Assembly (NCBI GenBank): GCA_964016885.1
Contig: OZ024741.1
Location: 214,458,001-214,522,000, forward strand
DNA: 64,000 nucleotides
Direction of reading: 5' to 3'
Origin: Eledone cirrhosa
Taxonomy: Eukaryota
Every line of letters begins with the position of its first letter. Within the stretch, counting starts at the first letter, position 1. Of the stretch, positions 29,683-63,403 are shown one piece after another. The notes under the pieces were generated by a model. The model was given only the letters and a program-made list of their open reading frames with translations. It was not told the origin of the DNA and made no database searches. A program made the position numbers and the translations under genes.

Positions 29683-30070
29683 TAGAAAATATATAGCTTT
29701 CACCGTATTTTTGACTAAAGGAATTAGAAACTACATTCTTTAGTAAAAAATACGGTGAAAGCTATATATTTTTTAATTTCAAACTCGCTCACTGTTTCAA
29801 AACATACTTAGTTGCCATTTAAACTCGCTAAGAATGTAGTTTCTAATTTGAATGGAAAGAGATGGGTGATGTGTTGGTGTAATGGTAGCACAGTGGTCGC
29901 GATAACCAAAGATGTGGGTTCGACTCCCATGTACGTCAATACTCATCTTTTTCCATTTATCTGAGGGTTCTAAACCCCGTTATCGGGCTAAAATTCCTTT
30001 AGTCAAAAATACGGTGAAGCTATATATTTTCTAATTTCAAACTCGCTCACTGTTTCAAAACATACTTACT
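29683..30070 (+). mobile_element. Penelope-type non-autonomous element (short inverted end + ~70-bp direct repeats) carrying a tRNA-like sequence
   Basis: Direct repeats ~29739-29809 and ~29998-30068; inverted copy 29683-29724; (TA)n flanks. Confidence 0.65.
29868..29938 (+). pseudogene. tRNA-like cloverleaf (71 nt), non-canonical anticodon loop, followed by T5
   Basis: Acceptor GATGTGT/GTACGTC with G-U pairs; D-arm GTGT-AATGGTA-GCAC; TGGT-CGCGATA-ACCA; GTGGG-TTCGACT-CCCAT. Confidence 0.55.
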
Positions 30071-58110: not shown

Positions 58111-58678
58111 AAATGCACCTGCTTCTTTGTCAATACAAGACGATGGGAAGGGAAAGCCCTGCCTACTTGACCAGCAGGTAGTAGCAGACATGGACAAAGG
58201 AATCCCAGCATTATTGCCTCAACATTTAGAAGAGGAACAAGCTTCAGTTGCTTGTAAGCAACTGAACACGCCTGACGTCACAAACGTCACATGTATCCAC
58301 ACACAGAAGGAAGAATGTGTAGCAAATACTAACACCACCATAAGCAACCAAGTTTACTTGACATTTAAATTAGCTCGACAAATTAACGGAGCCGAATATA
58401 CCAAAGGTATATATTGAGTTAGAAACTCAAAATAGTCTCTTACAATAAAATAGCTCAAGGAAAGAGATTTTTCCGAGCCGTATATCATAATTGAATATAT
58501 ATATATACCTTTGATATATTCGGCTCCGTTAATTTGTCGAGCTAATTTAAATGTCGAGTAAACCTGGCTGCTATTGTTAGTGGTGTGAGTTTGTGAGACA
58601 TGCTAAGTTCTGATACCATGTGCGTTATTATATATACGCACAGTCTTATATTCTTAGAAGTGAGGAGCTTACTAATTT

Positions 58679-59781: not shown

Positions 59782-59997
59782 ATCAATGTTTGCACATATA
59801 ATTCACCTCCTATTCAACTGAACAATAATATAGATACATATAAATTGATGTTGTGAGCAACAGTTTCGTATTTTCAGGGTGGAATGGATGCGACATATAT
59901 TTTACGAGAATTGTACAATAATTGTACAAGCATTCAAGTTCAAAATAAAATTAAAATCGAAATTAAATTAAAATCAAAATCAAAATCAAAAGTACGG

Positions 59998-60447
59998 AGT
60001 GGAATACATGCAACAGCTTAAACAAGGGAACAGTCCAAATATTAAAGAGGCATTGAGGAAGCAGTTTTGAGAAAGGAAGAGTGCGATAACAATTCATATG
60101 CAGGTGTGCGGATATTGTGACTGCGTATGTTTATTTCAACATATGTCATGGAAAAGTCTGCAAAAGCTGTTTCTCAGCACACATTAATTCGAACACCATA
60201 AACATCCAACACCCACCATAGACTCTAATACATTAACACAATTGCTTTAACTGCAGTATTTATTCATCTATATATGCATAATAGCTTTGCTTGTCTCCTT
60301 CTCATGTATATGACTTACGCAGTCACAATATCCACACGCCTGCATATGAATTGTTATCGCACTCTTCCTTTTTCAAAACTGCTTCCTCAATGCCTCTTTA
60401 ATATTTGGACTGTTCCCTTTTTTTAACTGTTGCATGTATTCCACTCT
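59998..60447. mobile_element. Inverted repeat (~130-bp arms), probable Penelope-type fold-back
   Basis: Arms ~59998-60127 and ~60316-60447. Confidence 0.65.
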
Positions 60448-61335
60448 ACCGATTCTGCCAATTCACATAATAATAATGAATTTGAAAACTAAACTCCAAA
60501 GAGGGCTCGATAAGGATAAATGTATATCAGATATATAAGAACCGTAGAGCAAATATTTATTAAAATAACAGATTAAAGTTTAAGCAAAGAATCGCTGCTT
60601 TCACCCGTAACGGGATCTTCTGAAACTAAAAAAGTCAATCTGTGAACGCAGAAGTAAATATTTCAAAAAACGTTGCAACCGGAGGAAGACAGGAAGACGA
60701 TACTTTGGTTCGTGGAAACGTTCCCTGGCAAAGAACAGAAAAAAACGAAGATAATACTTCATTATTTGGTGCGGTGAAAACAAAAACAGGTTTATGGTAT
60801 AACTGAAGTCGTAGAGTTAAGAATACGCAAAACTCACGTATACACATAACCAAATGCACATGTACCAGTATATATAATACATACGCAATAACATATACAA
60901 GCAAATATGCGTACGAGAAAGTATACGTACCTTCACAAAACATACAGGTAATATATACTTACCTATACAAATAAGTAATGGTATAAACATAACATATACT
61001 TAGCTACCACATCAAGACGTAAATTATCCGCGTATAGTTCGTACTACCCGTTGGTGAATAATGTGGGGCTGTAATACAGGAAAGTTTTGTGCAATTTATG
61101 TTTACAAGCCGAAATTGCCTCAGATTTTTTGTTTAAGATGTGGTCATTGGCGTAGAGTATTTATATATATATATATATTGGAATAAATGCTCTGAAATAG
61201 CGATATATATGTGAATATAGACATAGAATATTCGAAAATATTCTGTATGTTTATAATAAACATTTTGAAGACCTAATCGCTATAGAATAGAATACGTCAC
61301 GTATTACAATTAGATTCTCGATAAAAGCAAGGGAA

Positions 61336-61378
61336 GTAATCTACGCGTTTCATTCTCGTTAGAAATCATCAGGACTAC
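61336..61378 (-). ncRNA. Type I hammerhead of the 310-bp unit (also 61646-61688, 61956-61998, 62266-62308)
   Basis: GUAGUC-CUGAUGA-UUUCU-AACG-AGAAU-GAAAC-GC-GUA-GAUUAC. Confidence 0.88.
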
Positions 61379-62881
61379 ATATCCAGTGCTTTTATCGAGA
61401 ATGACACAGCTAGAGACTTATAGAATACTTAGCTGTGTACAGGAACTGGTTTGAAAGAGCGGTTGCCGGTCCGGCAGGAATTAGAAATTGGAATAAATGC
61501 TCTGAAATAGCGATATATATGTGAATATAGACATAGAATATTCGAAAATATTCTGTATGTTTATAATAAACATTTTGAAGACCTAATCGCTATAGAATAG
61601 AATACGTCACGTATTACAATTAGATTCTCGATAAAAGCAAGGGAAGTAATCTACGCGTTTCATTCTCGTTAGAAATCATCAGGACTACATATCCAGTGCT
61701 TTTATCGAGAATGACACAGCTAGAGACTTATAGAATACTTAGCTGTGTACAGGAACTGGTTTGAAAGAGCGGTTGCCGGTCCGGCAGAAATTAGAAATTG
61801 GAATAAATGCTCTGAAATAGCGATATATATGTGAATATAGACATAGAATATTCGAAAATATTCTGTATGTTTATAATAAACATTTTGAAGACCTAATCGC
61901 TATAGAATAGAATACGTCACGTATTACAATTAGATTCTCGATAAAAGCAAGGGAAGTAATCTACGCGTTTCATTCTCGTTAGAAATCATCAGGACTACAT
62001 ATCCAGTGCTTTTATCGAGAATGACACAGCTAGAGACTTATAGAATACTTAGCTGTGTACAGGAACTGGTTTGAAAGAGCGGTTGCCGGTCCGGCAGAAA
62101 TTAGAAATTGGAATAAATGCTCTGAAATAGCGATATATATGTGAATATAGACATAGAATATTCGAAAATATTCTGTATGTTTATAATAAACATTTTGAAG
62201 ACCTAATCGCTATAGAATAGAATACGTCACGTATTACAATTAGATTCTCGATAAAAGCAAGGGAAGTAATCTACGCGTTTCATTCTCGTTAGAAATCATC
62301 AGGACTACATATCCAGTGCTTTTATCGAGAATGACACAGCTAGAGACTTATAGAATACTTAGCTGTGTACAGGAACTGGTTTGAAAGAGCGGTTGCCGGT
62401 CCGGCAGAAATTAGAAATTGGAATAAATGCTCTGAAATAGCGATATATATGTGAATATAGACATAGAATATTCGAAAATATTCTGTATGTTTATAATAAA
62501 CATTTTGAAGACCTAATCGCTATAGAATAGAATACGTCACGTATTACAATTAGATTCTCGATAAAAGCAAGGGAAGTAATCTACGCGAGAATGAAACGCG
62601 TAGATTACTTCCCTTGCTTTTATCGAGAATCTAATTGTAATACGTGACGTATTCTATTCTATAGCGATTAGGTCTTCAAAATGTTTATTATAAACATACA
62701 GAATATTTTCGAATATTCTATGTCTATATTCACATATATATCGCTATTTCAGAGCATTTATTCCAATTTCTAATTTCTGCCGGACCGGCAACCGCTCTTT
62801 CAAACCAGTTCCTGTACACAGCTAAGTATTCTATAAGTCTCTAGCTGTGTCATTCTCGATAAAAGTAAAAGCACTGGATAT

Positions 62882-62924
62882 GTAGTCCTGATGATTTCTA
62901 ACGAGAATGAAACGCGTAGATTAC
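62882..62924 (+). ncRNA. Type I hammerhead in the inverted copies (also 63192-63234)
   Basis: Same sequence on the + strand; predicted cleavage after 62918 and 63228, 310 nt apart. Confidence 0.88.
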
Positions 62925-63354
62925 TTCCCTTGCTTTTATCGAGAATCTAATTGTAATACGTGACGTATTCTATTCTATAGCGATTAGGTCTTCAAAATGT
63001 TTATTATAAACATACAGAATATTTTCGAATATTCTATGTCTATATTCACATATATATCGCTATTTCAGAGCATTTATTCCAATTTCTAATTTCTGCCGGA
63101 CCGGCAACCGCTCTTTCAAACCAGTTCCTGTACACAGCTAAGTATTCTATAAGTCTCTAGCTGTGTCATTCTCGATAAAAGCACTGGATATGTAGTCCTG
63201 ATGATTTCTAACGAGAATGAAACGCGTAGATTACTTCCCTTGCTTTTATCGAGAATCTAATTGTAATACGTGACGTATTCTATTCTATAGCGATTAGGTC
63301 TTCAAAATGTTTATTATAAACATACAGAATATTTTCGAATATTCTATGTCTATA

Positions 63355-63403
<49 letters not shown>

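Follow-up and report, generated by a model that had tools for sequence, protein, structure and literature searches.

A non-coding hammerhead repeat of Eledone cirrhosa carries the insertion signature of Penelope-like elements

Metazoan non-LTR retrozymes are non-coding units of about 300 nt and low GC content, with one type I hammerhead ribozyme per unit, that occur as dispersed tandem arrays in genomes with co-resident Penelope-like elements (PLEs) (PMC7229834; 10.64898/2026.07.22.740005). Circular templates and mobilisation by PLEs have already been proposed for them (PMC7229834), and PLE mobilisation is supported by homology in frogs (10.64898/2026.07.22.740005). In the available text of these accounts the case is built on co-occurrence, on a ribozyme type in common and on homology of pLTRs; that text describes neither a fixed pair of ends nor a tail nor arms placed head-to-head, the word 'inverted' occurs 0 times in that of PMC7229834, and the same source calls the route of animal retrozymes into genomes open.

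EN+ PLEs leave a signature that consists of a tail, an inverted 5'-truncated copy and a bias towards TA (PMC8557442, PMC3846280), and the origin of their combined tandem and inverted structures is likewise called open (PMC8557442). For a lizard PLE studied in vitro, the accessible part of PMC11167929 reports that two adjacent internal reverse-transcription start sites define the tail, that both target strands are extended, that a dimer is predicted and that ribozyme cleavage is dispensable. [quoted passage not shown] In the openly accessible papers and preprints searched, we found no prior account of a PLE insertion scar in retrozymes.

The window analysed here is a stretch of 64,000 nt from Eledone cirrhosa (contig OZ024741.1, positions 214,458,001 to 214,522,000), and coordinates given without a label refer to it. 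At 61177–63358 a 310-nt hammerhead unit is arrayed in two arms placed head to head, with a period identity of 99%. Unit position 1 is the first base 3' of the predicted cut, and the features are as follows.

61163..61177, no strand: left (TA)n target tract, which doubles as the terminus of a different TA-inserted repeat (60468–61162)
61177..62587, minus strand: tailed arm of 4.55 head-to-tail 310-nt units; outer end at unit 165, inner end at unit 305
61177..61211, minus strand: tail of 34–35 nt (unit 131–165), the interval that separates two putative reverse-transcription start sites
61197..61283, minus strand: outermost copy of a conserved three-helix module (unit 59–145)
61336..61378, minus strand: one of the left arm's four complete predicted hammerhead motifs of type I
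62586..62587, no strand: head-to-head junction with 2-nt microhomology (CG), joining unit 305 to unit 294
62586..63358, plus strand: tail-less inverted arm of about 2.5 units; outer end at unit 130, inner end at unit 294
62860..62871, plus strand: private 6-nt tandem duplication, confined to a single right-arm unit
62919..63228, plus strand: reference 310-nt monomer, cut site to cut site
63359..63396, no strand: right (TA)n target tract

An earlier note on this DNA had described a 34-nt stretch with no inverted partner, (TA)n at both ends and a junction sharing CG at 62586–62587 close to the predicted cut. All of this was borne out: the unpartnered stretch is 61177/8–61211 (34–35 nt, as the left arm ends at unit 165 and the right at unit 130), (TA)n abuts both outer ends, and the nearest predicted cut, at 62582/62581, is 5–6 nt from the junction. 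The inverted arm indeed has no tail, but it ends at 63358 and not at 63359. The tailed arm starts at 61177 or 61178, its outer end is unit 163–165 when AT ambiguity is allowed for, and the tail shrinks to about 26 nt if the AT run inside the unit (132–139) is credited to the target. RNA sense is the minus strand in the tailed arm, which has one substitution (at 61478), and the plus strand in the tail-less arm. Predicted cuts in the left arm lie after 61342, 61652, 61962 and 62272, with a partial hammerhead at 62582; the right arm has a partial hammerhead (62602) besides two complete ones, which are predicted to cut after 62918 and 63228. The genome contains the junction sequence only once.

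The element has no ORF of ≥40 aa, and thus nothing of the ORF with reverse transcriptase (RT) and GIY-YIG domains that marks an autonomous PLE; with no ORF of its own, it must move in trans. Target-site duplication is indiscernible within (TA)n. An empty-site paralogue was absent among 14 copies of the flank, a search without result because the left flank is the end of another repeat. That repeat (60468–61162) belongs to a different family, has copies about 95% identical and a two-part inverted layout, and ends in the shared TA tract; the retrozyme is inserted at its end. Two more inverted-repeat pairs are found at 58333–58582 and 59997–60446 (82 nt at 90% and 134 nt at 95%), and 29868–29938 gives one tRNA match at the Rfam gathering score.

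From sequence and a motif scan, each unit holds a type I hammerhead with 6 pairs in helix I, 4 in helix II and a palindromic helix III of 1–2 pairs; cleavage activity is predicted from this motif. In the predicted monomer fold (z −3.9), a 16-bp stem (unit 13–28 with 250–265) closes the hammerhead domain, and cofolding of two cores predicts dimer pairing via the helix III palindrome. A search of the window element against Rfam gave no hammerhead match, and the Rfam microRNA matches at the junction were discarded as they only reflect the palindrome. A short palindromic helix III is normal in metazoan type I hammerheads and permits dimeric folding, according to the available text of PMC4209133, and the palindrome at the junction is this ordinary short helix III/loop 3.

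To place the element within its family, we searched the genome (3.0 Gb, 1,796 contigs) and found 14,896 exact matches to the hammerhead core. Exact tail ends followed by TA number 1,026, and the position-130 end pattern has 1,208 matches, some of them internal in variant units; the reversed-pattern control gave 0 in either case, and the tail and its polarity far exceed chance. On one contig (C1), which has 94 tail ends, an inverted exact 130 end lies ≤15 kb from 40 of them, and on the assumption that the two end types are independent we estimate about 2,000 insertions in total (1,026/(40/77)). Young insertions of this small non-coding repeat number more than a thousand, and the window element is one of them.

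We parsed 100 loci: 14 picked by BLAST, all 40 pairs on the same contig, and others from unpaired ends (26 of 54 tail ends that were unpaired or already in the sample, including one duplicate, and 20 of the 37 ends at 130 that lacked a partner). Loci were dropped as a duplicate (1), for a gap (1), for a junction outside the stretch (3), as decayed (1), for a very short second arm (1) or as single-armed (5). A head-to-head junction is present in 88 of the 99 distinct loci; 5 others are single-armed and 6 are incomplete, decayed or have a very short arm. All 84 insertions with both ends visible combine a tailed arm with a tail-less inverted arm, and all 84 have a TA run ≤15 nt from both ends, TA at one or both ends having been pre-selected by the search patterns in 75 of them (the other 9 were BLAST-picked). 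Pairing of a tailed with a short end, with TA at both, also holds in all 45 of the insertions that had not been selected on both ends. The commonest end pair is 165 versus 130; tail ends that had not themselves been selected for fall at 165–172, and short ends at 128–139, or lower where a variant breaks the match, with 13 in the 131–139 class. In an independent public sequencing run (X4), ends into TA occur at unit 139 (10 contigs) and unit 170 (1 contig). The Penelope insertion signature that the earlier note had claimed for this single locus (constant tail, tail-less inverted arm, (TA)n) is thus family-wide, and tabulating 3' ends and tail length across copies, as it had suggested, gives a constant tail and fixed end classes and not random ends.

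These data allow the family to be compared with both groups of described elements. Like non-LTR retrozymes, it consists of tandem, low-GC, non-coding units within the 150–450-nt range (310-nt period, no ORF), with a type I hammerhead core per unit and many dispersed copies without LTRs. Like EN+ PLEs, it has a 30–40-nt tail on one end only, an inverted, variably truncated head-to-head copy (PMC8557442, PMC3846280) and an AT-rich or (TA)n target, the (TA)n bias recalling Neptune and Naiad (PMC8557442, PMC3846280). It would also share with them, on the model given below, two internal start sites and an insertion step that needs no ribozyme. It differs from EN+ PLEs in that it has no ORF and each of its arms consists of several copies of a single small unit. 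Its putative upstream start site adjoins an AT run that resembles the target; the lizard PLE is described as starting at a site unlike its target (PMC11167929). The family shares with Chlamys MRC1 the character of a non-autonomous PLE passenger with multicopy head-to-tail insertions, but it differs in having a hammerhead in each unit and in that, among 70 GIY-YIG loci, we found no autonomous partner resembling it at the 3' end (compare PMC8557442). Judged by these features, the retrozyme appears to work like a non-autonomous PLE passenger while having the sequence characters of a non-LTR retrozyme.

Taken together, the lack of an ORF, the hammerhead in each unit, the two fixed end classes, the fixed polarity and the TA targets form the basis of the model that we regard as probable, in which a PLE-type RT/GIY-YIG enzyme acts in trans and primes one cDNA from each side of the DNA break, at two fixed sites separated by ~35 nt on a single RNA that is probably a circular monomer. 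Transcripts would self-cleave as dimers via the palindromic helix III and ligate into circles. The enzyme would bind the conserved three-helix module and nick both (TA)n strands; one cDNA would begin at unit 163–172 and the other at 129–139, and both would run through many units. The arms end at largely random positions, with 1–8-nt microhomology or a short filler where they meet; this pattern is seen directly, and the model would explain it by the joining of two cDNAs that had stopped there. The ribozyme would then act upstream, in making the template, and not at the junction.

Variants within insertions bear on the nature of this template. Across the 88 loci, 152 insertion-wide variants are fixed over all units, of which 137 occur in both arms, 0 are arm-specific and 12 are partial, and 27 haplotypes are represented among 77 well-covered loci. 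Single-unit changes number 105, or 96 after removal of a selection artefact (9 events). Where these can be compared in register between arms (81 loci, 69,364 bases), 62 sites are discordant versus 8 shared. Copying of genomic arrays as multimers would predict about 27 shared in-register sites, as against 2 cases of single-base sharing, a prediction that would be weakened if some single-unit changes are later mutations or assembly errors. The insertion-wide variants support the derivation of both arms from one RNA, and the mostly unmirrored single-unit changes indicate that the arms were copied separately from a template usually of a single unit sequence. An apparent error hotspot at unit 174, which had been considered a candidate end of the first round on the circle, proved to be an artefact of a BLAST query that carried the variant, and its events were spread over rounds 0–5.

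There are exceptions. In 3 of 81 loci (L124, L157 and L179), both arms have in-register differences in common (far above the 0.01 expected by chance), and those templates therefore held several non-identical units. In L124 (C1:136719250-136726157), the outer two units of both arms are of one haplotype and the inner units of another; L157 and L179 have one shared in-register variant each. Roughly one insertion in ten may come from a multimer. In a further locus, L115, an A to G switch at unit 276 occurs partway along one arm only.

The best-surviving alternative retains the dual priming by a PLE but supposes that the template is usually an uncleaved linear multimer, either transcribed from a genomic array or already a multimeric RNA, so that the ribozyme would play little part. 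The mirrored haplotype split in L124 and the in-register variants of L157 and L179 are what it predicts, unprocessed RNA serves as the main substrate of the lizard PLE in vitro in the accessible part of PMC11167929, and a cluster of stops at unit 16–23, described below, fits refolding of the stem in every unit. However, in-register sharing is limited to those 3 of 81 loci and, for single bases, falls far below the multimer expectation; a bottleneck of one unit is required to explain 27 haplotypes that are each uniform throughout an insertion; and arms cross up to 21 cut sites. We consider a linear multimer unlikely as the usual template, and a circle of one unit remains our preferred reading.

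Variant spectra show modest signs of an RNA stage. Insertion-wide A>G changes (20 events at 8 sites) outnumber T>C changes (6 events at 4 sites), a difference that is not significant by site (p 0.11), and fixed A>G recurs at unit 20, 259 and 276 on different haplotypes, which would presumably fit adenosine editing. Among single-unit changes, C>T exceeds G>A (24 versus 7, p 0.015), and T>C compares with A>G as 14 to 7 (p 0.20, selection artefact removed). Two of the 4 insertion-wide indel types are located 2 nt from the cut.

We next considered where and how the two arms meet. Among 68 filler-free junctions, 41 have microhomology of ≥2 nt versus 18% expected, and fillers are present at 20 of 88 junctions; in one locus (L167:1348-1619), 272 nt of unrelated sequence has been captured at the head-to-head junction. 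Inner ends lie ≤11 nt apart in 8 of 88 insertions (6.5 expected), which shows no mirror symmetry. These junctions fit microhomology joining and not the self-priming at junction palindromes proposed for rotifer PLEs (PMC3846280). That proposal is one form of a fold-back origin of the inversion, the others being DNA-level palindrome formation and assembly chimera, and the window junction by itself does resemble a hairpin, with 9 nt between the arms. Against fold-back in any form stand not only the spacing of inner ends but also the mostly unmirrored single-unit variants (62 versus 8), the two outer ends and flanks, which always differ, and the TA ends that appear in an independent run; we regard it as highly improbable.

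The earlier note had further proposed strand switching near the ribozyme-generated end, such that RT switches at or near the ribozyme-made 5' end and the inversion sits at the ribozyme. The position of the window junction, 5–6 nt from a cut, invites this reading, and the 14 of 88 short arms that stop 16–23 nt before the cut could reflect run-off followed by trimming. Tabulated against the cleavage site, however, junctions are scattered round the unit with none at the cut: using locus-specific alleles, 6 of 88 insertions have an inner end ≤6 nt from a cut (6.7 expected), 7 have one ≤10 nt away (11.0 expected), and 0 of 176 inner ends are compatible with run-off at position 1 (1.6 expected). Tail-arm inner ends are uniform round the unit (Rayleigh p about 0.78), 168 of 176 arms run across one or more cut sites (831 crossings in total, up to 21 per arm), and both arms of the window element extend beyond the cut. 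As a general rule, ribozyme-end switching is refuted, and we give it almost no credence as the origin of these inversions. The closeness of the window junction to the cut has a probability of about 8% by chance; inversion at the ribozyme in the window is a coincidence, and the position of this junction is atypical of the family.

The cluster of short-arm ends at unit 16–23 (14/88; scan p 3e-4, one of 9 scans) falls within the 3' strand of the 16-bp stem, and the window junction lies outside it. It may reflect stalling, hairpin trimming or run-off with trimming. A second apparent cluster of inner ends, at unit 296, was due to a common allele and disappeared once the alleles of each locus were used.

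In classic LINE-type twin priming, the second primer anneals internally and the first cDNA halts where the second began. Here the second primer would anneal at the internal AT run (unit 132–139), which adjoins the short end and could pair with the target and beside which the 13 short ends of the 131–139 class are found, but tail-arm inner ends are unenriched at unit 125–145 (7/88, 6.0 expected), there is no poly(A), and the hammerhead, tail and TA targeting match this genome's PLEs, so that we dismiss this explanation as scarcely credible.

The insertions therefore reject ribozyme-end switching and fold-back as the rule and support two independently primed cDNAs. With about two thousand near-identical young insertions, the family is a natural dataset that separates published models, and it supplies what a test in the existing in vitro assay for PLEs would require: a minimal RNA, two putative start sites and a target.

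Related non-coding repeats contain the module that the model has the enzyme bind. At least six older sibling hammerhead families have the unit 59–175 module and the end sites in common with the retrozyme and differ in their ribozyme heads (loci L076:2440-2864, L220, L221:1968-2560, L228, L237-L295, L307:245-430 and L311:2309-2858); two contain what we take to be an octamer-like motif. Siblings with other hammerhead heads are alike over unit 59–200 at about 75%, and the copies examined end at two sites homologous to those of the retrozyme. When 13 copies from five families are aligned, three helices are supported, with 94.4% of cells paired and double changes in 4 of 18 pairs; the covariation score is above that of 500/500 shuffles, though the structure was derived from these same related sequences. 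The closing stem of this module has its 3' strand between the two putative start sites. We tentatively suggest a more specific form of the model, to which we give slightly less than even weight: two RT active sites, each priming from its own side of a single (TA)n break at one of a pair of fixed sites that flank a conserved RNA junction, would both run round the same RNA circle and so make the Penelope arrangement of head-to-head arms plus tail. The arrays would then record the reaction at single-template resolution, and the module, common to at least five sibling families, would recruit the enzyme.

Finally, we looked for the enzyme. The genome has many elements with RT and GIY-YIG domains, as Pfam matches confirm: of 10,595 first-look candidates 150 were scored, and 70 GIY-YIG loci (about seven families) were sampled from these scored matches. 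BLAST and profile scans of the 70 loci found no ORF-bearing element that shares the tail or module, so the autonomous PLE with the 34-nt tail that the earlier note had proposed seeking did not emerge from this sample; nor, in distinction to the published retrozyme case, did pLTR homology to an autonomous PLE. A tblastn search of 60 loci of two older sibling families likewise found no such element, and both searches gave separate insertions only. The ends of the autonomous RT+GIY-YIG families also fall at two sites and run into TA, in some cases as inverted pairs, and hammerhead-like motifs lie upstream of them. Their end pairs lie 76/141–143, 124/164 and 116/155 nt past the motif, and the second of these is close to the 130/165 of the retrozyme. 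One family, which has a CxxC linker before GIY-YIG like Neptune and Nematis, is very young (86/86 scored matches at 98–100% amino-acid identity).

Hammerhead-like motifs with a palindromic helix III were seen at the 3' ends of several RT+GIY-YIG loci (L185, L186, L190, L194, L202, L203 and L204), and we take them to be a variant with U3 and A8 replacing C3 and G8. Tails of these elements are about 40 to 66 nt and have a common short motif that is absent from the retrozyme. Three of the loci also contain a very abundant short TA-inserted element (L190:1679-1812, L194:8505-8705 and L203:3130-3325), with a helix II nearly identical to that of the retrozyme unit, a longer helix III, a tail near 67 nt and, in two copies, an inversion just before the core.

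Most words of the retrozyme unit also turn up in 20 public runs, which come from 17 studies and bear 18 organism labels. The likeliest cause is trace carry-over between samples, and spread of retrozyme RNA between hosts is a less likely alternative. No contig of runs X1 and X2 extends across the head-to-head junction of the window element, and two raw-read runs (X23 and X24) with the organism label of run X2 had no reads on the stretch. Six contig runs were examined: X4 has a depth near 4e5 and 565 contigs, and X1, X2, X9, X16 and X19 have one contig each at depth 5–365, with three contigs that close on themselves.
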